This document shows, one piece after another, positions 2,481-19,615 of a stretch of 64,000 bases of DNA. The translations under genes were made by a program, and so were the position numbers. This stretch comes from Escherichia coli O157:H7 (lineage in GTDB: Bacteria > Pseudomonadota > Gammaproteobacteria > Enterobacterales > Enterobacteriaceae). The stretch lies in assembly GCF_013167455.1 (NCBI RefSeq), contig NZ_CP038328.1. The stretch is one strand, 5' to 3'. The stretch's first letter is position 1; every line of letters begins with the position of its first letter. Below the pieces are notes generated by a model. That model did no database searches and was not told the DNA's origin. It saw only the letters and a program-made list of their open reading frames with translations.

Positions 2481-2568
2481 GGTGAGGTGTCCGAGTGGCT
2501 GAAGGAGCACGCCTGGAAAGTGTGTATACGGCAACGTATCGGGGGTTCGAATCCCCCCCTCACCGCCA
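2481..2568 (+). tRNA. serX: tRNA-Ser (anticodon GGA), 88 nt with long variable arm and encoded CCA
   Basis: GGTGAGGTGTCCGAGTGGCTGAAGGAGCACGCCTGGAAAGTGTG...GGTTCGAATCCCCCCCTCACCGCCA; anticodon loop CTGGAAA; adjacent to ghrA as for serX rather than serW. Confidence 0.9.
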
Positions 2569-3644: not shown

Positions 3645-3842
3645 TCACCGGTTCTGGTGCAGAAGCTGCAGATGACGCAGGGTACGGACATCCTCCCGGG
3701 CCTGTTCGATACAGGGCAACAGTGCTGCTGAATCCGTTTTATCCTCATCGTTGTCAAAGATAATTCCCGATCCGCAGTCGATATTGTCCTGCAGCCACGC
3801 AATCAGAATATCCAGCGCTGTTTCCGTGGTTAATGATTTCAT
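3645..3842 (-). CDS. Small hypothetical protein (about 65 aa from internal Met MKSLTTETALDILIAWLQ)
   Basis: ORF 3645..3887 overlaps the YeeW-like ORF; internal start is more plausible. Confidence 0.35.
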   Translation of the reverse strand: MKSLTTETALDILIAWLQDNIDCGSGIIFDNDEDKTDSAALLPCIEQAREDVRTLRHLQLLHQNR

Positions 3843-3853
3843 GTTGTTCCTGG

Positions 3854-4345
3854 TTACCAGTCGAAAGTGGGTAAACCCGGCAGGCATTCAGCGCTGGCAT
3901 CCAGATGAATGAGACTGACGCCATAACGCCGGATGAGTGTGACGACCAGACGACGGAACGTTTTTGACAGACCCAGGCGTTTAAGCCGCAGAACCGGGTA
4001 CGACCACGCATCGGTACGCAACAGATAGCCGTTACCGGTAAAATGAATCCATTCTGATTCACCGAAGTCACTGGTCTGGTGTGACAGCGAGTACAGCCAG
4101 GCGTTGTCCGTTTCCGTGATATGTGCGGTACTGCAGCGTATGCCGGTAAGGGTAGCAAATGGTGGCGTGCATTCTGCTGAGGTCTGGTCAGATTCATCAA
4201 CAACACGAAGGGAGTAGCCGTTATCGCAGACCATGTTAATCAGTTCAGCGAGCTCAATACCATCGACGTCAACGACAATGCGCCCCATGTTCAGTGCCTG
4301 TACGTTAACGCTGTCGGCTTCCAGTGTCAGGGCCAGTTTCATCAT
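3854..4345 (-). CDS. YeeW-like protein
   Basis: 163-aa ORF immediately downstream of cbtA in the same orientation, as in CP4-44-type modules. Confidence 0.55.
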
Positions 4346-4716
4346 TTCGCCTCCGGATACTTACCCAGGGTAATGTTATTTACCGTTCTGTAATTGTCGC
4401 GGGTCATCAGGCCGGTCGCCCGGCGAGCCCGGAGGATATCAATACTGTTTATTAACTGAGAGCGGGGACAGGTGCTGAATCCCGGCTGGTCGGTACGCAC
4501 CAGCGCGTATTTTTCCACGAGAAAATTAACTGCATCACACAGTGAAATGCCTGCCTCAATATGCTGCTCAATCACACGTTCATCGGCAAACGGTGTGTCA
4601 TTCAGTGTGAGGCCATAATGCTGGTCCAGCAGTCGGATGAGCAGTGTCTGCCAGATGGTGACGGGAGACGGGCAGCGAGATACCTCCCGTACATGTGTGT
4701 CGGATAATGTTTTCAT
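4342..4716 (-). CDS. cbtA: CbtA/YeeV-family toxin (type IV TA, cytoskeleton-targeting)
   Basis: ORF 4342..4818; probable start [26 protein letters not shown] (ATG at 4714-4716); 124 aa; follows antitoxin. Confidence 0.85.
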
Positions 4717-4762
4717 CTTAAGTTCTCTGTAACTGGTAGTGCTAAAGGTGAGAGCTTCGGGG

Positions 4763-5137
4763 TTATGAGGTGGTTGCGGGTGCTGGTGTCGGATAAACAG
4801 CCAGATAAACGTAACCACAGGAGCCGAGGGTGTCGGCTTCGCAGGTCAGCCCTTTTGCATTCAGCGTGACGGTATGCTGATATCGGGGATTCAGTTCACC
4901 GCTGGTGAGCATGAGTTCCAGTTGTTTCATCAGCAGCGGAAAGGCCTGGTCCAGATGGTATGCATCTGCGTCGCTGAAGCGGCCTCTGATACCGGCGCGG
5001 TCGGCAAGGTAATGCAGGCGGTTACCCTCTTGCACCAGACGAGCGCCAAAACAGGGCCTCACTGTGCAGGGAAGCCCCCACCAGGGGCGGTCGTGATTGT
5101 CATCGGGATGAGTTATCCCGGAGAGTTTGTCTGACAC
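4763..5137 (-). CDS. cbeA: CbeA/YeeU-family antitoxin
   Basis: 124-aa ORF with [41 protein letters not shown]..., close match to remembered YeeU. Confidence 0.9.
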
Positions 5138-5299
5138 GATAAAATCCTCTCTGAAAAGTGGTTAAGAATGGTTTAACGATGACAGGTCAGCCGGCGCGCT
5201 GACCGGTTTCGGTGAAGATGTATGCATTGATGAGAATGGCCTCATCCACAGCGGCGTCTGAGGTCATCTGGTCGTACTCGTTTCCCGGGTGACGGAACA

Positions 5300-5521
5300 T
5301 CAGTTCAGGGTGACACTCATCAGCCGGACATACGGGCCAAAACTGTCCTTACGGCGTTCTGCAAACACGGCAAGAACGCCGGGAATATCCTGCACTTCAC
5401 GACCAGTATACGCTTCAGCACTGCCGTGCCAGCGATACTTACCGGTACAGAACGGAAAAAGACGGGATGCAGGATGCTGTTGGTGAATACGCATGGCTTC
5501 ACCACGGGTGATGATTCTCAT
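5300..5521 (-). CDS. YeeT/YkfF-like small protein
   Basis: 73-aa ORF between the RadC-like gene and the antitoxin, same strand. Confidence 0.6.
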   Translation of the reverse strand: MRIITRGEAMRIHQQHPASRLFPFCTGKYRWHGSAEAYTGREVQDIPGVLAVFAERRKDSFGPYVRLMSVTLN

Positions 5522-5583
5522 GATGTGATACCTCTGAAGACAGAAGATAAAAGTGAAAACAGGTGTGATGTGGTTGTGACGGG

Positions 5584-6075
5584 TTAAAGCAGACCATGTT
5601 CGGCAAAGGAGAAAACCTGGTTGCCACCGACTATCAGATGGTCCGGCACCCGGATATCCACCAGGCCCAGTGCCTGTACCAGACGTTCGGTGATAAGCCG
5701 GTCTGCCTTACTGGGTGTGACTTCACCGGACGGGTGATTGTGCGCCAGCACCACGGCAGCGGCATTGTGGTACAGGGCGCGTTTAATCACTTCCCGGGGA
5801 TGAACTTCCGTACGGTTGATGGTGCCGGTGAAGAGGGTTTCACCGGCAATCAGCTGATTCTGGTTGTTCAGATACAGCACCCGGAACTCTTCCCGCTCCA
5901 GTCCCGCCATGTTCAGAATCAGCCATTCCCGTGCCGCACGGGTGGAGGTGAAGGCCACGCCGGGTTCATGAAGATGGCGGTCCAGGGTTTGCAGGGCCCG
6001 CAGAATGAGACTGCGCTCGCCGGGCGTCATCTCTCCGGGCAGAAAGGAAAGCTGCTGCATTGTCCCTGCCTCCAT
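5584..6075 (-). CDS. RadC-like JAB-domain protein (YeeS/YkfG/YfjY family)
   Basis: 163-aa ORF with JAMM-like motif HNHPSGEVTPSKAD. Confidence 0.85.
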   Translation of the reverse strand: MEAGTMQQLSFLPGEMTPGERSLILRALQTLDRHLHEPGVAFTSTRAAREWLILNMAGLEREEFRVLYLNNQNQLIAGETLFTGTINRTEVHPREVIKRALYHNAAAVVLAHNHPSGEVTPSKADRLITERLVQALGLVDIRVPDHLIVGGNQVFSFAEHGLL

Positions 6076-6561
6076 TCAGTCAATGATGCGCATAATGGCG
6101 CTGCATTCCGGATGCTGCAGGGCGTAATCCCGCAGCCGGTAATAGTGGACCGTCATGGCATAACACTCCGTACGACAGGCATGATGACTGTACGTCATCA
6201 GACAGGCAGCAATACCGGCGGCTTCCGGGCTCATTTCAGCGCGGTTGCCGTTCATGGCATTGAACAGTACCCATGTTTCGTCATCATCGTCATCCGGTTC
6301 GGGTGCCATAAATGCCCCGCCGTTGTTCAGGGTGTACAGATTCCAGATACCACCGCAGTAGTCTTCGCAAAGACGGTCCATCCAGCCGAAGACACGGGGC
6401 TCCAGGGTCACCCACTGTGGAATGAGGCCAAAATGCTGCGGCCAGAAGCTGATGCGCTGTTCATCAGGGACGGGAGTGGCAACCAGCTGAGGTGGGTTAT
6501 TCCCTGATGCAGTGGTTACGGAAACAGAAGGTGTGGTGGAATTATGCGAAACGGTTGTCAT
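6076..6561 (-). CDS. Antirestriction protein (KlcA/ArdB-like, YfjX/YafX family)
   Basis: 161-aa ORF with acidic DDDDDE patch; position upstream of the RadC-like gene as in CP4-type modules. Confidence 0.75.
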   Translation of the reverse strand: MTTVSHNSTTPSVSVTTASGNNPPQLVATPVPDEQRISFWPQHFGLIPQWVTLEPRVFGWMDRLCEDYCGGIWNLYTLNNGGAFMAPEPDDDDDETWVLFNAMNGNRAEMSPEAAGIAACLMTYSHHACRTECYAMTVHYYRLRDYALQHPECSAIMRIID

Positions 6562-6651
6562 GAGGTTATTCCTTATAAAAAGTAAATGAATGGAAGAAGC
6601 CCCGGGGCAGGAACAGATGTGAGTCAGGACTGCACTTTCAGTGAAACGGCA

Positions 6652-7470
6652 TCAGCGCATGCTCTCCAGCAGCGTTTCTGCCATCACCCACAATGCGCGA
6701 TTGAGCTTAATGTCGGTATCAATGCTGTGAATGGCCCGGGTATGGATACGTTTTCCTTTTGCACTGCGACCGGAAATCCCGCCTTTCAGCATATTCTCCT
6801 GGATGGTCTGATAAGCACTCCACAGGTCCTTACCGTAATCCTCCCGGCGTCGTGGTGTCAGAATGTCGGCGGTGGTGACGGGCTGATGTTCGTCACCATA
6901 ACGGTAAGTCAGTGCCGCCTGTGCCAGCGCCTGGCGTGCCGGTGGCGGCAGGACCAGCGACTGCATGGCATCACGCTTCTCCTCTATCCGGTCAAAAACG
7001 CCCACCACCTCGTAAGCCCCTTCAATGACTCTGTCCACCACATTTCCCCGGTGTGGAACACGCAATTCTCCCAGAGACTGACCGCAGACCAGTCCATTGG
7101 TACAAATGGCACGAAAATATCCGGGTAACATCTGGTAGCTGGATGAACCGTCATGGGAGTTGAGCAGAATAATTTCAGGGACATGCTGACCGGTTATCTG
7201 TCCGGCCCGCCGCAGACGCAGCATGTGTTTTGTGTATTCCCGGCGGCTCTGGTCGCGCACGCGGGTCTGGCAGGCAAAGAACGGCTGAAAGCCTTCCTGC
7301 TGCAGATTTTCCAGGACGGTGATAGTGGGAATGTACGCATAGTGTTCACTGCGAGAGGTATGTCGGTTTTCCCCAAAAATACTCGGTACATGGCGCATCA
7401 GTTCTTCGTGTGTCAGCGGACGATCACGACGTATCTGGTTCGCATAACCAAAACGACTGGCTAATCTCAT
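6652..7470 (-). CDS. DUF932-family protein (YafZ/YfjQ-like)
   Basis: 272-aa ORF; conserved position in CP4-like islands. Confidence 0.65.
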   Translation of the reverse strand: MRLASRFGYANQIRRDRPLTHEELMRHVPSIFGENRHTSRSEHYAYIPTITVLENLQQEGFQPFFACQTRVRDQSRREYTKHMLRLRRAGQITGQHVPEIILLNSHDGSSSYQMLPGYFRAICTNGLVCGQSLGELRVPHRGNVVDRVIEGAYEVVGVFDRIEEKRDAMQSLVLPPPARQALAQAALTYRYGDEHQPVTTADILTPRRREDYGKDLWSAYQTIQENMLKGGISGRSAKGKRIHTRAIHSIDTDIKLNRALWVMAETLLESMR

Positions 7471-12273: not shown

Positions 12274-15123
12274 TCAGAAAGTCATATTCAGCGTAGCCTG
12301 ACCGTTATAGCCTTCAGCGCTGCTGCCGCTGACGCTGTGGGCATAACCGGCCTGAACGCCCAGGGTGATATTTTCCCGGATACGGGCTTCCAGTCCGGCC
12401 TGCAGGTCCAGTGACGTGCCATTCCGGGACGGTGAGAACGTCATGTTACTGCCGGCTGCGGCTGTCCCCATGCTCATGTCACCCCGGGAGCTGAAGGTGC
12501 GGATAACAGAAGGCTGTACCCACCAGTTCACCGGCAGTTCACTCACACTGTGTTTTGCACTGTCGCGCAGGGTGTCACGGGATGAGGTGCCTTCACCAAA
12601 GGTCATATCGTTGTGGCTGCCCAGACGGAAACCGGCACGCACATGTTGTGCACTGCCATGCCCGAACTTCACATAACCGGCGTTATCCTGGCCGTCATCC
12701 AGGGAGAGTCCCTGCCAGGTGTACTGCAGTTGTGGCTCCAGCATCAGATTGTCAGTGATACTGAAGGGCAGACCGGTTTCCAGTGAGCCCAGCCAGCCCC
12801 AGCCCCGGGCGCGGAAGTCGTTATTGTCCGATGACGCTTTCATGCTGTGACGGGTTCCCTGGGCCACAATGTCAGCCCACAGGCCGGAGGATGTGTGTAC
12901 CAGATTCAGGTATCCGCCCAGACTGCCGGCATCATCCCGGACCGTGCCGGCGCGGGAACCGTCATCATCCTTAACATCAACGGAAGAATGGCCTGCAGCA
13001 CCATACACCCCTGTCGTCAGAGACATACCGGCAACCTCTGTTCTGAGCAGGTCACCCTCCAGACGGACGAAGCCATAGCTGCCGCTGCTTTCCGGCGTGG
13101 CTCCACGGGCAATACCGCCGTTGTTATCGTGACCGAGATGACCGCCCTGAATGCTGAGACGGACGCTGTTATTTTCACCGTTTACACCGGTCTGATGGCT
13201 GCGGGAGCCTGCCAGAATCCGGTCATAGTCCATTGCCTGTGTCAACATGGATGTATACAGGGGGACTTCAGCACGATAAGCATTTTCACTGCGCAGGTAC
13301 CAGTCTTCATCGCTGTCACGGTTCAGGGTGTAGTTAAAGGCGCCGGCCTGAAGCGGGCGACTCAGGGCAAACGCACCTTCTTCTGTGGTGGCGCCATTCT
13401 GTGCATCCACAACCCGGATACCCTGTCCGGTGGTTGCCACCCCGAGGTTGCTGTTTCCGACATTTGTAAACGCAAGCCAGGTTTTGCCGGTTGCCTGACC
13501 ACCATTAATCACCAGCTGGTCAGAGGCATTGCTGCCATCAAGGCGAACACGCATATTGATGGTGCCGCCCTGGCCGGTGAGGTTCGTGGTGGTCAGTTTA
13601 TGGAACGTTACCGGGGAGTTACTTTTTGCAACAGCACGGCTCAGCGCGGCATTCGGTGTCGTCTGATTATCAAAGCGAATCTCCCCTGCGTTAACAATAT
13701 CGCCGGTACTGACCACATCACCATTCAGTACCATACTGGCGCCTTTACTGAGCTGTGTTCTGCCACTCAGACTTCCCCCGGCAGCCAGCGTCAGTGTTCC
13801 ACGATGTCCGACAGTGGTGTTGCCAGCCTGTCCCCCGGCATTAACCGTAAAGCTGCCGCCATTTTCCAGCAGCAGGCCGCTGGCCTGACCGGATGTGCCA
13901 TCAATACTGAACTTACCGCTGGCATTGGTCCCCTCAACAGTGGCACCACTGTCTGCAATCAGGGCACCACCGGATGTTATGGTGACACTTGTCGCCTTAC
14001 CGCCGGCAGACACTGCCAGGGTACCGCCGTCATCCACTAGGGTATTCTGTGCTGAATGGCTCTCCAGTACATCCAGACGACCGCCGGATTCCAGAACAAC
14101 ACCGTCAGCCTTACCGTTTTCCACCGTGAAATTCCCCAGACGGTTTGTGCCGATGACAGTTGCAGCAGTACTGGTAACCAGTGCACCGCCCGTGTTCTGG
14201 GTGACTGCAGTGGCTTCCCCGCCGGCATGTACCCTCAGTTCACCGTTCTGATTTATGGTGGTGTTACCGGCAGCGCCACCTGCCTTAACAACCTGCCAGC
14301 CCCCCTCGTTAATTACCGTGTTCAGCGCAAGTCCGTCCCTGTGCACATATTGGTAACCGCCATTCAGTGTGGTATTCAGGGCCCTTCCGTGTACCGACTG
14401 GTCACCACCTGCGTAAATGAGAGTGTCACGGGCTAGCCCGGAAAATAAGATAATCTGCCGTCCATTTTTGTTGATGGTGGTGGATTCTGCTGTTCCCTGG
14501 ACCTTCTGACCCGTATACGAGTTGTCAGAATCAGGGCCGCCTTCTGCGCCGGTGTTGATGATGGTTCCTGTTGCCAGCCCGCCACTTTTAACGCTCTGGT
14601 AACCGTCGCGGTTGATAATTGTACCGGTGGCAACCCCGCCCTCATGCACCCACTGCTCGCCTCTGTTATTCAGTGTGGTGTTCACCGCCAGTCCGTTCAG
14701 GCTCTGTCCCCCGCCGTCACGAATAACCGTATCACTGGCTGTTCCCCCCTCCAGCACGACCTGACGACCATTTGTGGTGACAGTGGTGTTTCCGGCTATC
14801 CCGCCATTCTGTATCCATTGCCCACCGGTGTTTTCTTCACTGTCCGGCCCCAGTTCCAGCCCGGTACTGATGGTCATTCCGTTGGCCGTACCGAAGACAA
14901 TCTGGTTGTCATGATTTGTCAGTGTTCCATCGTTCACGGTTTCTCCCGCCTGTACAACCTTGTCAGCAGCCAGTGCCGGGACTGATGTGACAGCAGCAAG
15001 AGACAGCGCAACCGCCACACCGGCGCGTTTTCCCCGTGAGCGGGCCAGTTCGGAGGCCACCACCAGGGTGCCCGTAATGTGATTCCATACCAGCCTGTAG
15101 CTGGTGTTCAGATGTCGTTTCAT
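12274..15123 (-). CDS. flu: Antigen 43-family self-associating autotransporter (Cah-like)
   Basis: ORF track 12274..15291; start at MKRHLNTSYRLVWNHITG (ATG 15121-15123); 949 aa; passenger repeats and C-terminal beta-domain ending ...ATLNMTF. Confidence 0.9.
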   Translation of the reverse strand: MKRHLNTSYRLVWNHITGTLVVASELARSRGKRAGVAVALSLAAVTSVPALAADKVVQAGETVNDGTLTNHDNQIVFGTANGMTISTGLELGPDSEENTGGQWIQNGGIAGNTTVTTNGRQVVLEGGTASDTVIRDGGGQSLNGLAVNTTLNNRGEQWVHEGGVATGTIINRDGYQSVKSGGLATGTIINTGAEGGPDSDNSYTGQKVQGTAESTTINKNGRQIILFSGLARDTLIYAGGDQSVHGRALNTTLNGGYQYVHRDGLALNTVINEGGWQVVKAGGAAGNTTINQNGELRVHAGGEATAVTQNTGGALVTSTAATVIGTNRLGNFTVENGKADGVVLESGGRLDVLESHSAQNTLVDDGGTLAVSAGGKATSVTITSGGALIADSGATVEGTNASGKFSIDGTSGQASGLLLENGGSFTVNAGGQAGNTTVGHRGTLTLAAGGSLSGRTQLSKGASMVLNGDVVSTGDIVNAGEIRFDNQTTPNAALSRAVAKSNSPVTFHKLTTTNLTGQGGTINMRVRLDGSNASDQLVINGGQATGKTWLAFTNVGNSNLGVATTGQGIRVVDAQNGATTEEGAFALSRPLQAGAFNYTLNRDSDEDWYLRSENAYRAEVPLYTSMLTQAMDYDRILAGSRSHQTGVNGENNSVRLSIQGGHLGHDNNGGIARGATPESSGSYGFVRLEGDLLRTEVAGMSLTTGVYGAAGHSSVDVKDDDGSRAGTVRDDAGSLGGYLNLVHTSSGLWADIVAQGTRHSMKASSDNNDFRARGWGWLGSLETGLPFSITDNLMLEPQLQYTWQGLSLDDGQDNAGYVKFGHGSAQHVRAGFRLGSHNDMTFGEGTSSRDTLRDSAKHSVSELPVNWWVQPSVIRTFSSRGDMSMGTAAAGSNMTFSPSRNGTSLDLQAGLEARIRENITLGVQAGYAHSVSGSSAEGYNGQATLNMTF

Positions 15124-15348
15124 CAGCTTTTCCTTACAGAGGGTGAATAAAAAAGCCGGTACCCACAAAAGTGGATACCGGCAGGTACAAAACAGAGTTA
15201 TCGGGCACAGCGATACGTCCCGGGCGTAAACGCTCTCCCCCTTCATCAGACAGAGAAGTATCAGTCTGTTGTGTGCAATTCCGTTCTGCATGATGAAGAG
15301 ATTCAGCTGCCTTTTCGCAGGCCATTAACCACTATAAACGATCGATAT

Positions 15349-15384
15349 AAACGATCGATACCTGTTTTATCGATCGTTTTATTC
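15349..15384. promoter_or_regulatory. Three closely spaced GATC sites upstream of the Ag43 gene (Dam/OxyR phase-variation switch)
   Basis: GATC at 15349-15352, 15362-15365, 15381-15384 within ACGATCGATATAAACGATCGATACCTGTTTTATCGATCG, about 230 bp upstream of the start. Confidence 0.65.
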
Positions 15385-15494
15385 TATTAACAGTAGAGCA
15401 GTCACGCAAGAGAAACAGGAGGGGCATGAGGTGTTTGTATCATGTTTTCAGTTGGTTAACGCAATGTAATCAGACATTTCCCCTGGCAGACTGT

Positions 15495-16367
15495 TCAGAA
15501 GAAAATCCAGTTCCATACCGCGCGGGCAACAGAGACCACCGTGTCACGGACGGCACGCAGAACTGTGCGTGCAACAGAGGCAACACAGACGCTCTCCACC
15601 GTGTCAAATATCCGGTCCACCGCACCGGTAAACTGTTCACGGGCCTGCCCCCAGACAGATTCCGTGCACAGCTCGTCCTGCAGGCGGGTCATCAGGGGAC
15701 TGGCGGCATGGTCGGGAAGCGCTGTCATGAGCGCACTGACCAGCGTATCCAGTTCCCAGCCGGTGCGGGCCGATACGGCAACAACCGGATGTACGGGCCG
15801 GAACAGCCGGAATACCGCATCTGTTTTTTCGCGAATGTTCTGTTCCTGTGCGGGAGAAGGCTGAATACCTGCCATATCCCATTCATGGCAGGGCTCTGTT
15901 TTGTCGGCCTGCGTCACCACAAACAGCACCTGCTGATGTCCCCGGTGCAGTATGTGTCGCCAGAAATACTCATCCACAGACAGGGCACGGTCATCGGCTT
16001 TAATCAGCCACAGTACCAAGTCCAGTTCAGGCAGAATGTCACGGTACAGGGCTTCATACTCTGCATCCCTGTCCCGGCTCTCGCCCACCCCGGGCAGGTC
16101 AGTGATAACCATGCTGTGACCATGGCCACTCAGACGGAAGCGCCGCACTTCCCGGGTGCCGGCGTGAACATCACTGACCGGGGTGACCTCCCCCTGAAAC
16201 AGTGCATTACAGAGTGAGGATTTACCGGCCCCGCTTTTACCCATAATGCCAATCACGGGTTCGTGACTGGTGAGTTTGCGCAGATGTTCCAGGATGTGAC
16301 GGGAAAGCGAGTAAGGCAGGGAGGAGAGCGGTTTTTCAATTGCCTCAATGGCATCAGACGGATTCAT
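15495..16367 (-). CDS. YeeP/YkfA/YfjP-family GTPase (50S ribosome-binding GTPase family)
   Basis: ORF track 15495..16406; likely start MNPSDAIEAIEK (ATG at 16365-16367); P-loop GKSGAGKSS, DLPG motif. Confidence 0.75.
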   Translation of the reverse strand: MNPSDAIEAIEKPLSSLPYSLSRHILEHLRKLTSHEPVIGIMGKSGAGKSSLCNALFQGEVTPVSDVHAGTREVRRFRLSGHGHSMVITDLPGVGESRDRDAEYEALYRDILPELDLVLWLIKADDRALSVDEYFWRHILHRGHQQVLFVVTQADKTEPCHEWDMAGIQPSPAQEQNIREKTDAVFRLFRPVHPVVAVSARTGWELDTLVSALMTALPDHAASPLMTRLQDELCTESVWGQAREQFTGAVDRIFDTVESVCVASVARTVLRAVRDTVVSVARAVWNWIFF

Positions 16368-16695
16368 ACATGTATTCCCGGTGAAAAAAGACAAAACCCC
16401 GCGCACCGGAAAGGTGGCGGGGGATTCACAACGATAATATCTGTCTGAAATTATTTAGGATGCAGGTATCTTCTGATAATCATACATCCCGAATTTTGTT
16501 CTTAATAGTTGAGTAGTGGTATTTGGTTTCCCTGAGAGAATATAAAGGTGAATCATGCTGCATTGAGTTTGATTCAATTTGTACTGAGACAAGTATCTTC
16601 ATGATTATAATCAAAAGTTGGGTGGATTGGTCTGGCGCTCATCATTTTTTCGAATAAACTCACTAATTATTGCCCCCCCCAAAGGAGATGATTTC

Positions 16696-16878
16696 ATGTA
16701 TAATTGTGGTGAATCATATTCAGAATACGACATATCATTATCTGACGATGAAAACTATGACGATGACTATTATCGTGAACGCCCGTGTCCGGGAGAAGTT
16801 TTCGGCTATGATAATACTGAGGATAATGATGAGGCGGCATCTGATTATGCATTAAAAATAAATGAAAACTCTGATTAA
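16696..16878 (+). CDS. Small highly acidic hypothetical protein (60 aa)
   Basis: ATG 16696 preceded by AAGGAG at 16682-16687; MYNCGESYSEYDISLSDDENYDDDYYRERPCPGEVFGYDNTEDNDEAASDYALKINENSD. Confidence 0.35.
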   Translation: MYNCGESYSEYDISLSDDENYDDDYYRERPCPGEVFGYDNTEDNDEAASDYALKINENSD

Positions 16879-17108
16879 TACGGGGATAGCTGATAATAAG
16901 ACAATCAATGACAGATATTAATGAATAAACATAATCAGGCGCTCAATACTTGGTTTAATCTGGGCGCCTGATTAAAATCTGAGGAAACATATAATAATTT
17001 TCATCAAAATAGTATTTATGTACTAACTAAGCTGGATTTGAACCTCTATTTCTGGGTATTTGTTATCACTTAATCCATTACTGCTCCTCCTTCAGCATAT
17101 GTCGTATC

Positions 17109-17690
17109 CGTTGAAGGATTTACGCATATCGGTAACGTCGGCAACGAGCCAGATGCGGGTACCTGACGGGAGTGAGATCATCGTCCCCTCCCGGTCAGTT
17201 CACGGATCAACAGCGTGAGCAGCTCTGGCGATGGATTTTCCAGCGTCATGTTACCGTGACGGAACTCCACCTTGCAGGAGCCGGCACTGACACTGGTCTG
17301 AGTGGAAGTGGATAAAGACGGCGCAATGGCCGCCACCGGTTCTTTCTGCTCATCCGGCGTTATTTCTACAGGTAATAATTCAACGCCAGTGTCAGAAGAG
17401 GTCGTTACCTGAAGACGCCGTGATATACGCCCTTCGTTCTGCCAGAGCCTGAGCCATTTGAACAGGAGGTTATCATTGATATCGTGTTCCCGGGCAATAC
17501 GGGCAACAGAGGCTCCTGGTTGTGATGCCAGTTCCACCATACGAAGTTTGAATTCATTCGAATAGTTTTTACGAGGTTCTTTTCGCCAGTCCTGTAATTC
17601 CATACTTAGATGTCCGTCTATATCAGATGGGCGTCTAAGTTACCAATTTTCGTCTGATGGCTACATACGGCGGTCAGTTTACGCTTACTG
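17109..17690 (-). mobile_element. Truncated IS66-family element (3' tnpB fragment + tnpA + terminal inverted repeat)
   Basis: 17109-17690 aligns to 56289-56866 of the intact IS66-family copy; terminal repeat GGCTACATACGGCGGTCAGTTTACGCTTAC at 17661-17690. Confidence 0.8.
17178..17603 (-). CDS. IS66-family accessory protein TnpA
   Basis: 141 aa, strongly similar to the 56355..56780 ORF. Confidence 0.85.
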   Translation of the reverse strand: MELQDWRKEPRKNYSNEFKLRMVELASQPGASVARIAREHDINDNLLFKWLRLWQNEGRISRRLQVTTSSDTGVELLPVEITPDEQKEPVAAIAPSLSTSTQTSVSAGSCKVEFRHGNMTLENPSPELLTLLIRELTGRGR

Positions 17691-17905
17691 ACAACGCGAT
17701 GGCGGAGAGCATCAATGGTCTTTACAAAGCGGAGGTAATACACCGTAAGAGCTGGAAAAACCGTGCAGAAGTGGAACTGGCCACACTCACGTGGGTGGAC
17801 TGGTATAACAATCGACGATTGCTGGAAAGGCTGGGCCATACTCCTCCGGCAGAAGCAGAAAAAGCTTATTATGCTTCCATCGGAAACGATGATCTGGCAG
17901 CCTGA
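17691..17905 (+). pseudogene. C-terminal fragment of an IS3-family transposase (OrfB), truncated by the IS66 remnant
   Basis: Translation ...DNAMAESINGLYKAEVIHRKSWKNRAEVELATLTWVDWYNNRRLLERLGHTPPAE resembles IS3-family OrfB C-termini. Confidence 0.55.
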
Positions 17906-17944
17906 GTTCACAGATAAAACACTCTCCAGGAAACCCGGGGCGGT

Positions 17945-18287
17945 TCAAACCTGATTCTGGAAAAGGACTTTGTGGATTGTTGCTATTGCCAGTGAGATTG
18001 AATGAAGTCGTTTTAACTCGCTTTGAATACGTCTTGCCCCCAGATTTCGCTGAGAACGTAACTCCAGAATCAGAGCGACTTCGCAAGTGCCGGTTTTCGT
18101 TGATGGTGAACGCTTGGGGCGACGGCTGTGGCTTTCCAGACCAGCGATGCCCTGAGCCAGATATCTGCGCCACCATTTTACGCAATGTGGGCCGAGAAAT
18201 GCCACAGCGACGGCATACAAATCCCGCATCACCGGACGTTTCATAGAGTTTTACCCACTGTAGCCGCTGCTGAATTTCCCTGTTCAT
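17945..18287 (-). pseudogene. Frameshifted N-terminal fragment of a DDE transposase (IS481/IS3-like)
   Basis: Two overlapping frames, MNREIQQRLQWVKLYETSGDAGFVCRRCGISRPTLRK and ...WWRRYLAQGIAGLESHSRRPKRSP, consistent with a disrupted transposase N-terminus. Confidence 0.45.
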
Positions 18288-18602
18288 AATTTGGCATTAG
18301 TTCAGCTCAATCCCGACTTAAAAAGTCCCTACAGGATGTTCCGGACCTGAGGCACAGTTCATATCCTTATCCATAAAAAATTTAGCTATGTCTATAGCAT
18401 TAATCTTGACAAGACGACGTTAGGGCCTGGCGATGAATCATTTCCCCTGCCAGATATCCTTTGGGGTGCACCAGAACTACCGTTTTATATCTATATAACT
18501 GAAACGTCCCTCGCCATCCTTCATATTTTGATGTAGTAACACCATTCACTTTCATCTACCCCCCGTTTTATTAACATATAGTAAAAATCACCTCGCCGCA
18601 TT

Positions 18603-19247
18603 TTATTCTTTTGAAGTAAAATCATTTACCAGTTCACTTAAAGCTCTCTTTTGTTCATCATCATACAGAGATTGAATCCGGAATTTAATCTCTTCTGCAA
18701 CCAGTCTTGCATCGGGCTCATAAAATATTTTTGTTATTCGCTGTTTCTGATGTTCAGGCTGGTCTTCCATATTTCGTAAAACCAGATGAAATAATATATC
18801 ATAAAGTGCGCAATGCCATGAATAACCATCATTGGTTAAAATAAGCTCCCAAACCCGCTCCTGCTCGGCAATAAGCTGCAGAACAAAGGACTCAACCTGT
18901 TCTGTTTGTTCGGGGGCAACACGGTATAGCGGAGCAATCACAGCAAAAGATAGTTCATTTAACCAGGATTCCGCTTCCTTCTCGCTCCTGAACGGTGGAC
19001 AGTTTTGTATTCTTCGTTCGTATTCACGGGTAATCTGCTCCAGAATATCCTCCGGCGGTGTCAGCCACTTATTCCTGAGCAATACACTGGTTGATGGATG
19101 ACAGCTGGCTATTTCAGCAATAATTTCACGTAATGTCTCCGGGCTGAACTTCTTCAGCTGATTGTAGTGCTCCCGGGTAAAACCATGTTCATCGCATAAA
19201 AGTTGCCATGTCATTGATATACTGTTTGCCATTCCTTGCTTCATCAT
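18603..19247 (-). CDS. Hypothetical protein (214 aa), co-oriented with the IbrAB-like genes
   Basis: ORF only; no motif recognised. Confidence 0.45.
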   Translation of the reverse strand: MMKQGMANSISMTWQLLCDEHGFTREHYNQLKKFSPETLREIIAEIASCHPSTSVLLRNKWLTPPEDILEQITREYERRIQNCPPFRSEKEAESWLNELSFAVIAPLYRVAPEQTEQVESFVLQLIAEQERVWELILTNDGYSWHCALYDILFHLVLRNMEDQPEHQKQRITKIFYEPDARLVAEEIKFRIQSLYDDEQKRALSELVNDFTSKE

Positions 19248-19267
19248 TAATACCTGTTACCTGAATA

Positions 19268-19576
19268 TCAACAGACCGGTGTACCTTTTCTGAATACCTC
19301 CCCGGACGGAGTGGCAATCCCCATTCGCCTCAGCGTGGCATCTGCAGCTTTCGCCACCTCGCTGATATCCAGCGTTTCAGGTAGCGGCGGGGACGATATC
19401 TGCGCCAGACAATAATTCCGGCGCAACAACAACCACTCCCGTTGTGCTTCTGTACATTCAACATTTCCCATAACAAAAAGCCAGCGGTCAGAAGCTCTGC
19501 GCCAGCAACCAGCAGCCTCCAGTTTCTGCGCAACCATGTCTTCCACAACTTCCGGGGTACTCTTTTTCCTGCTCAA
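19268..19576 (-). CDS. Hypothetical protein (102 aa)
   Basis: ORF only; 21-bp gap to the next ORF suggests co-transcription. Confidence 0.4.
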   Translation of the reverse strand: MSRKKSTPEVVEDMVAQKLEAAGCWRRASDRWLFVMGNVECTEAQREWLLLRRNYCLAQISSPPLPETLDISEVAKAADATLRRMGIATPSGEVFRKGTPVC

Positions 19577-19615
19577 AACATTAACTCACTGAAATAATAT
19601 ACATATCTGACGGTC

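Follow-up and report, generated by a model that had tools for sequence, protein, structure and literature searches.

The region upstream of cah in Escherichia coli O157:H7 as a probable agn43-family Dam/OxyR phase switch

Known Dam/OxyR switches and the cah upstream region

In the published model of the agn43 switch, OxyR occupies the unmethylated operator, where it represses transcription and keeps Dam out, whereas methylated GATC sites can no longer be bound by OxyR; the competition is reopened at each replication, giving heritable ON and OFF states with a switching rate of about 10^-3 per generation (PMC3764049, PMC4872104, PMC13337833). At agn43 the reduced form of OxyR binds and suffices, and switching does not depend on the oxidation state (PMC2909390). 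Similar systems are known from Salmonella. In opvAB and gtr, OxyR half-sites overlap GATCs, as the putative half-sites do at the locus described here, and opvAB would further resemble it in a 32-bp half-site spacing, described as canonical for reduced OxyR (PMC4856963), and in switching that is independent of the OxyR oxidation state. The Salmonella switches differ in having two alternative OxyR sites upstream of the promoter, four GATCs and an OxyR that is also an activator, whereas cah would have a single putative operator overlapping the -10 and +1, acting as a repressor site only.

We analysed a stretch of 64,000 nucleotides of E. coli O157:H7 DNA, referred to here as the window. A preliminary description of this DNA had placed three GATC sites upstream of an Ag43/Cah-like autotransporter gene, and these sites are real: they begin at 15340, 15353 and 15372, 217-252 nt upstream of the cah start codon, whose ATG is at 15123. 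The 38-mer quoted for the region, CGATCGATATAAACGATCGATACCTGTTTTATCGATCG, occurs verbatim on the + strand at 15339-15376. As cah lies on the minus strand, the quoted 38-mer shows the strand opposite to the sense of the gene, and "upstream" was the correct word for its position.

We consider it probable (roughly 0.85) that this locus is the cah promoter-operator of E. coli O157:H7 and an agn43-family Dam/OxyR epigenetic phase switch. The cis elements of the published agn43 model are all present at the locus, the OxyR site as a consensus match. Neither oxyR nor dam is located in the window; each gene is present in 5425 of 5426 complete E. coli genomes. The preliminary description had called the switch known biology, and we agree: all the sequence-level features of an agn43-type switch are present, the gene downstream is a full-length Ag43-family autotransporter, and what we add to an already described type of regulation are small refinements. 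A literature search for cah in connection with OxyR/GATC regulation or methylation found no report. By homology with agn43, we infer that the cah allele in the window would undergo ON/OFF phase variation.

In the mechanism that we propose, a sigma-70 promoter (-35 TTGCGT, -10 TAGAAT) would drive transcription from the G of GATC-I. A reduced OxyR tetramer seated on two half-sites 32 bp apart would block RNA polymerase and shield the GATCs from Dam (OFF); if instead, once the DNA has been replicated, Dam methylates the three GATCs before OxyR can bind, OxyR would be excluded and cah transcribed (ON), and either state would be inherited. Transcripts would then have to pass an intrinsic terminator in the 252-nt leader, a passage probably aided by translation from an in-frame upstream ATG, and those that terminate would make up the IsrC/IS102 RNA. 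Ag43/Cah drives cell aggregation and biofilm formation, and with ON/OFF switching the cells of one O157:H7 population would differ in a surface adhesin and antigen, a point that bears on colonisation studies, on vaccine targets (Cah is among the candidate antigens) and on phenotypes scored from single colonies. For the window itself the outcome is mostly one of annotation, namely an intact cah with a complete regulatory region. For specialists, the refinements suggest that the K-12 operator, the basis of all mechanistic work, is a minority form and that an extended OxyR site is common to all alleles. The features of the region are collected in Table 1.

Table 1. Coordinates of the cah regulatory region, its neighbours and other annotated elements of the 64-kb window. 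Signed positions are relative to the predicted transcription start; fractions of 119 refer to the metagenome alleles described in the text.
Feature	Position in window	Strand	Remarks
GATC-I	15372..15375	both	+1..+4; retained in 117/119 alleles
GATC-II	15353..15356	both	+20..+23; retained in 115/119 alleles
GATC-III	15340..15343	both	+33..+36; retained in 118/119 alleles
-35 hexamer TTGCGT	15404..15409	-	3/6 to consensus; 17-bp spacer to -10; aligned K-12 counterpart TTGTCC
-10 hexamer TAGAAT	15381..15386	-	-11..-6; same in K-12 and 9 other alleles
Predicted +1, G of GATC-I	15375	-	by homology to the K-12 isrC RNA start
Proposed extended OxyR operator	15341..15387	-	consensus match 16/20
Putative OxyR half-site A, ATAGAATAAAACGAT	15373-15387	-	-12..+3; consensus 8/10
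Putative OxyR half-site C, ATCGTTTATATCGAT	15341-15355	-	+21..+35; consensus 8/10
Perfect 12-bp inverted repeat, AAACGATCGATA / TATCGATCGTTT	15349..15379	-	arms carry GATC-I and GATC-II
7-bp loop AAACAGG	15361-15367	-	flanked by the two arms of the 12-bp repeat
Perfect 13-bp tandem duplication, TATCGATCGTTTA x2	15335..15360	-	carries GATC-II and GATC-III
cah 5' leader, IS102/IsrC family (Rfam RF00124)	15142..15377	-	77 bits, gathering score 46, E = 2.3e-12
Upstream in-frame ATG	15289..15291	-	168 nt upstream of cah; frame open through the terminator
Second upstream in-frame ATG	15244-15246	-	123 nt upstream of cah
Intrinsic terminator in leader	15149..15182	-	12-bp stem, 8 G-C pairs, 4-nt loop, T-run; ends 25 nt before ATG
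cah, 949-aa Ag43-family self-associating autotransporter	12274..15123	-	ATG 15123, stop 12274
Regulatory intergenic region			372 bp, between the cah ATG and the stop codon of the YeeP-like GTPase gene
YeeP-like GTPase gene, upstream neighbour	15495..16367	-	its stop bounds the intergenic region
tRNA	2481-2565	+	Rfam gathering-level match; tRNA-Ser at the island boundary by comparison with EC4115
Esr41 (EHEC sRNA)	35481-35554	-	Rfam gathering-level match
STAXI RNA	58759-58910	-	Rfam gathering-level match

The flu (agn43) region of K-12 was retrieved and aligned with the upstream region of the window. In both, the GATCs stand at +1, +20 and +33, with a start-to-start spacing of 19 and 13 bp, and the window's sites at 15372, 15353 and 15340 fall in the alignment columns of K-12 positions L001:2318, 2337 and 2350. 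The two regions also have in common the -10 TAGAAT together with the next five bases and a 17-bp spacer to a TTG-type -35, the putative half-sites A and C, the GATC-II/III spacer GTTTATATC, the leader terminator and Shine-Dalgarno region, and a homologous autotransporter downstream. They differ in the -35 itself (TTGTCC in K-12, TTGCGT in the window), in the base after GATC-I (A in K-12, G in the window), in the length of the leader (222 nt as against 252 nt), in the upstream in-frame ATG (counted from the start codon, at -156 in K-12, at -168 and -123 in the window) and in the size of the protein (1039 aa in K-12, 949 aa in the window). The GATC-I/II interval reads AATATCTATTTTATC in K-12 and GATAAAACAGGTATC in the window, and within it the 7-bp loop TCTATTT of K-12 is replaced by an inverted AAACAGG. 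The earlier statement that the spacing and sequence match agn43 can thus be kept for the number and spacing of the GATCs, for the promoter and for the GATC-II/III part, but not for the GATC-I/II spacer, which matches K-12 at only 23 of 31 positions.

The K-12 isrC RNA is annotated as starting at L001:2318, the G of the first GATC, and the agn43 transcription start was reportedly mapped by Wallecha, in 2002, to the G of GATC-I. On this homology, transcription of cah would start at the G of GATC-I at 15375. A generic promoter scan of the cah upstream region found nothing, since the scan needs 4/6 matches and the -35 has only 3/6, and the promoter was therefore assigned by homology and by its conservation pattern. 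Among 70 unique regions of the majority type, there is essentially no variation in the -35 and -10 hexamers, in contrast to the 17-bp spacer between them and the DNA upstream of -36, both of which are hypervariable. Downstream, +1..+36 is conserved in these regions except for the five bases +25..+29, which are N positions of the OxyR consensus, and +37..+100 is conserved as well; across alleles, the five bases at +25..+29 are hypervariable, with 17 spacer variants. This pattern of hexamer and operator conservation looks like the signature of a working promoter and operator. From sequence and conservation, and with the start carried over from K-12 isrC, the region has a sigma-70 promoter, and the candidate operator adjoins or overlaps its -10 and +1.

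Loop inversion and the proposed OxyR operator

The loop of the window matches that of K-12 at 0 of 7 positions when read forward and at 5 of 7 as its reverse complement, and reverse-complementing it raises the match of the whole GATC-I/II 31-mer from 23/31 to 28/31. Judged from this alignment, the divergence of the GATC-I/II interval from K-12 is an inversion of the 7-bp loop. Natural alleles also include the loop variants AAATAGG and CCTATTT, which are exact reverse complements of each other. For an unbiased view of allele variation, we used 120 metagenome contigs anchored on the leader terminator, an anchor independent of the switch, 119 of which have the region present. The window's loop orientation is found in 103 of these 119 alleles and the K-12 form in 16, making K-12 the minority. 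Of ten alleles sampled at regular intervals along the BLAST ranking, nine share the loop orientation of the window and three have lost one GATC.

Alleles of agn43/cah of the majority type (e.g., the Nissle 1917 allele and 28RC1 cah) share with the window the loop orientation, the promoter, the three GATCs and the downstream leader sequence GTTTATAGTGG. They differ in the GATC-II/III spacer, which is mostly GTTACTATC or GTTGCTATC rather than the GTTTATATC that gives the window its perfect 13-bp tandem repeat. Outside the window, K-12-type alleles were the only ones found to have GTTTATATC; the O157 core in its exact form occurs once among the 119 metagenome alleles. One metagenome contig (L048) carries a coding sequence 99.97% identical to the cah of the window next to a different switch variant, in which the II/III spacer is of the majority form and GATC-III is mutated to TATC. 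This pairing of a near-identical cah with another switch suggests recombination or rapid change at the switch.

Candidate OxyR sites were called by matching to the consensus ATAGnTnnnAnCTAT-N7-ATAGnTnnnAnCTAT, which is said to come from Toledano in 1994, and such calls must be read with the degeneracy of OxyR sites in mind. The form of the consensus quoted in PMC2909390 has one extra inserted letter. In the compact, 22-bp-spaced register of K-12, the window matches at 10 of 20 positions and K-12 at 14, a score that in this register is reached only by 15 K-12-type alleles; the match is lost because the loop inversion removes the CTAT quarter-site. We therefore dropped the compact site as a family-wide operator and preferred an extended arrangement, in which the centres of half-sites A and C lie 32 bp apart. 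The extended match of 16/20 is the top score on either strand of the 64-kb window, the runner-up being 14, and the extended motif scores 15-17 in all 119 alleles, those of the K-12 type included. Its four recognition elements would be ATAG (over the -10), CGAT (GATC-I), ATCG (GATC-II) and CGAT (GATC-III). As the candidate site spans the -10 and all three GATCs, it would explain both the occlusion of the promoter and sensitivity to methylation at each of the three sites, and would account for the tolerance of a loop in either orientation. Whether the family-wide operator is this extended site of the reduced-OxyR type (-12..+35), with the compact K-12 site a lineage-specific by-product of loop inversion, is in our judgement an evenly balanced question. 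The best compact (22-bp-spaced) match in the window is elsewhere, at 16994-17030 (14/20), where the DNA upstream of the GTPase gene is AT-rich; this candidate, too, is a match to the consensus only.

The leader RNA, the cah gene and alternative readings

The match of the cah leader to Rfam RF00124 is full-length (model positions 1-206 of 206), and the leader folds with an energy z-score of -4.26. The terminator hairpin, which was also detected independently of the Rfam model, is part of the minimum-free-energy fold and is conserved in nine of ten alleles inspected. In all ten, an in-frame ATG lies upstream of the terminator with its frame open through it, although the positions relative to the start codon differ (-75, -123/-168, -156). 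Expression of agn43 is higher when translation begins at an upstream start codon, and the conserved in-frame upstream ATGs fit this. A second layer of control, consisting of an IsrC/IS102 leader with its terminator and upstream ATGs, is present at cah, and in either state of the switch the terminator could leave cah largely silent.

The preliminary description had gone on to take the switch as confirming that the gene is probably functional. This step cannot be made from the switch: strain E2865 (L002 20338-23187) has an upstream region 100% identical to that of the window and an internal stop in cah, strains Z1835 and Z1836 (hits H31 and H32) have an identical switch and an IS1203 insertion in cah, and among the 94 metagenome alleles that have three GATCs and a reading frame ending inside the contig, 7 have a truncated frame. 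With broken cah genes behind an identical switch, the integrity of the switch and that of the gene are independent. Mutations in cah are said, from work by Carter et al. in 2018, to occur in about 31% of STEC. Nevertheless, the gene in the window is intact on its own evidence. Its 949-aa product has the full Ag43-family architecture in four Pfam domains, namely ESPR (signal peptide), AIDA (four copies), the autochaperone AC_1 and the Autotransporter beta-domain, and the 3.2-kb stretch with cah and the DNA upstream of it has 100% identity to many O157:H7 chromosomes, including EC4115, TW14359, Xuzhou21 and SS52. The annotation of the gene in these chromosomes reads "cah: calcium-binding autotransporter Cah"; that of EC4115 is annotated as intact (WP_000820483.1), in an island that adjoins tRNA-Ser, ghrA and the csg genes. 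Related upstream regions are present in 4012 of 5426 complete E. coli genomes.

We weighed this reading of the locus against three others. A chance cluster of GATCs without regulatory meaning would not be surprising from clustering alone, since three GATCs within 36 bp turned up in about 70% of 64-kb windows simulated with a Markov model; clustering being insignificant in simulation, the case for a switch rests on homology and conservation. The exact gap pattern of 9 and 15 nt is rare (2 of 200 simulations), and the 35-nt switch word, for which zero chance matches are expected, occurs once in the window, with no second copy of the switch in the 64 kb. The sites are homologous base for base in position to those of the characterised K-12 switch and coincide with three of the four predicted OxyR recognition elements. 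All three are present in 112 of the 119 metagenome alleles, two in the remaining 7 and fewer than two in none. The comparative data refute the chance-cluster reading, to which we assign next to no probability.

Two further readings accept the switch and change its output. If the loss of CTAT meant that OxyR binds poorly in the allele class of the window, then cah would be constitutively ON or strongly biased towards ON at the promoter level, as the poorer compact match (10/20 here vs 14/20 in K-12) might lead one to expect. We find such a weakened operator improbable: the same loop orientation prevails in most alleles, within surroundings so strongly constrained as would not be expected of a dead operator, the extended site (of the 16/20 type) is intact in every allele, K-12 included, and three GATCs would not persist in 94% of alleles without a function. 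Alternatively, the main product could be the short IsrC/IS102 RNA, with the switch mainly gating a small RNA and cah decided downstream by antitermination. The full-length Rfam match above the gathering score, the strong terminator 25 nt before the ATG and the listing of isrC as an ncRNA in the K-12 annotation all speak for this, as does a passage in PMC5389530 which, citing Wallecha 2014, reports flu to be under antitermination control of IsrC. This is compatible with our main explanation, to which it would add a layer, and the upstream ATGs whose frames read through the terminator in 10/10 alleles suggest that read-through is provided for. Cah protein was, moreover, reportedly detected in O157:H7 by Torres in 2002. 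As an account that makes the small RNA the main product, we see it as having only a slim prospect of being correct, and we retain the agn43-family phase switch of cah as the preferred reading.

GATC depletion around cah and other GATC clusters in the window

On both sides of the switch (12274-15339 and 15376-17175), the window is almost devoid of GATC and TCGA, and over about 5.3 kb there are no Dam sites other than the three of the switch. In the coding region of cah there are 0 GATC in 2850 bp and 0 TCGA, and K-12 flu likewise has 0 GATC in 3120 bp, while 6-9 GATCs per gene are expected with the protein and codon usage held fixed. In 91 unique Ag43/Cah coding sequences (88-100% identical to cah), we counted 3 GATCs where about 640 would be expected and 1 TCGA where the expectation is about 405; ATCG and CGAT show mild depletion only. 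Among natural polymorphisms, GATC-creating substitutions are rarer than class-matched ones (1 vs 8.6, P = 0.0017; 2 vs 8.0, P = 0.014), and TCGA-creating substitutions are likewise under-represented. In this comparison of substitutions, eight control palindromes were near expectation overall, two of them being borderline low in one class each (CCGG among the 948-aa alleles, ACGT among those of 1039 aa; both P = 0.049). The GATC-free zone ends at a median of 60 bp past the stop codon.

One explanation would be that selection keeps the phase-variable transcription unit free of extra Dam sites, which would protect the contest between Dam and OxyR at the operator from the activity of Dam, SeqA or MutH recruited by nearby GATCs. 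We regard this as doubtful. The depletion is common to the island backbone, being found in the YeeP-like GTPase gene, the ibrA/B-like genes, the gene for the AAA protein and the JAB/antirestriction/CbtA module, whereas the dynamin-RdcB-patatin module and core genes are normal. A Dam-specific explanation is weakened by the equal depletion of TCGA and by the depletion of these backbone genes, which makes the desert a signature of the module or backbone that may be unconnected with the Dam switch. Restriction avoidance is a poor fit as well, because genes with normal GATC counts adjoin cah in the same island.

Over the whole window, 157 GATCs were observed against about 261 expected from dinucleotide shuffles, and multi-kb GATC-free stretches also occur at 17891-23114, 26662-30770 and 3769-7422. 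In a GATC cluster at 26187-26240, the palindrome TGATCATTATAGAATAATGATC precedes a word that resembles agn43, TTATCGATCGATAT; when its coordinates are transferred to EC4115, this cluster lies at the end of an IS3-family element, and Dam control of IS3 transposition is reported in the literature. Further GATC triplets, with a regular spacing of about 24 bp, lie at 52588-52635 and 62746-62794, the former within a short repeated GATCA...GTTTGGCATC motif.
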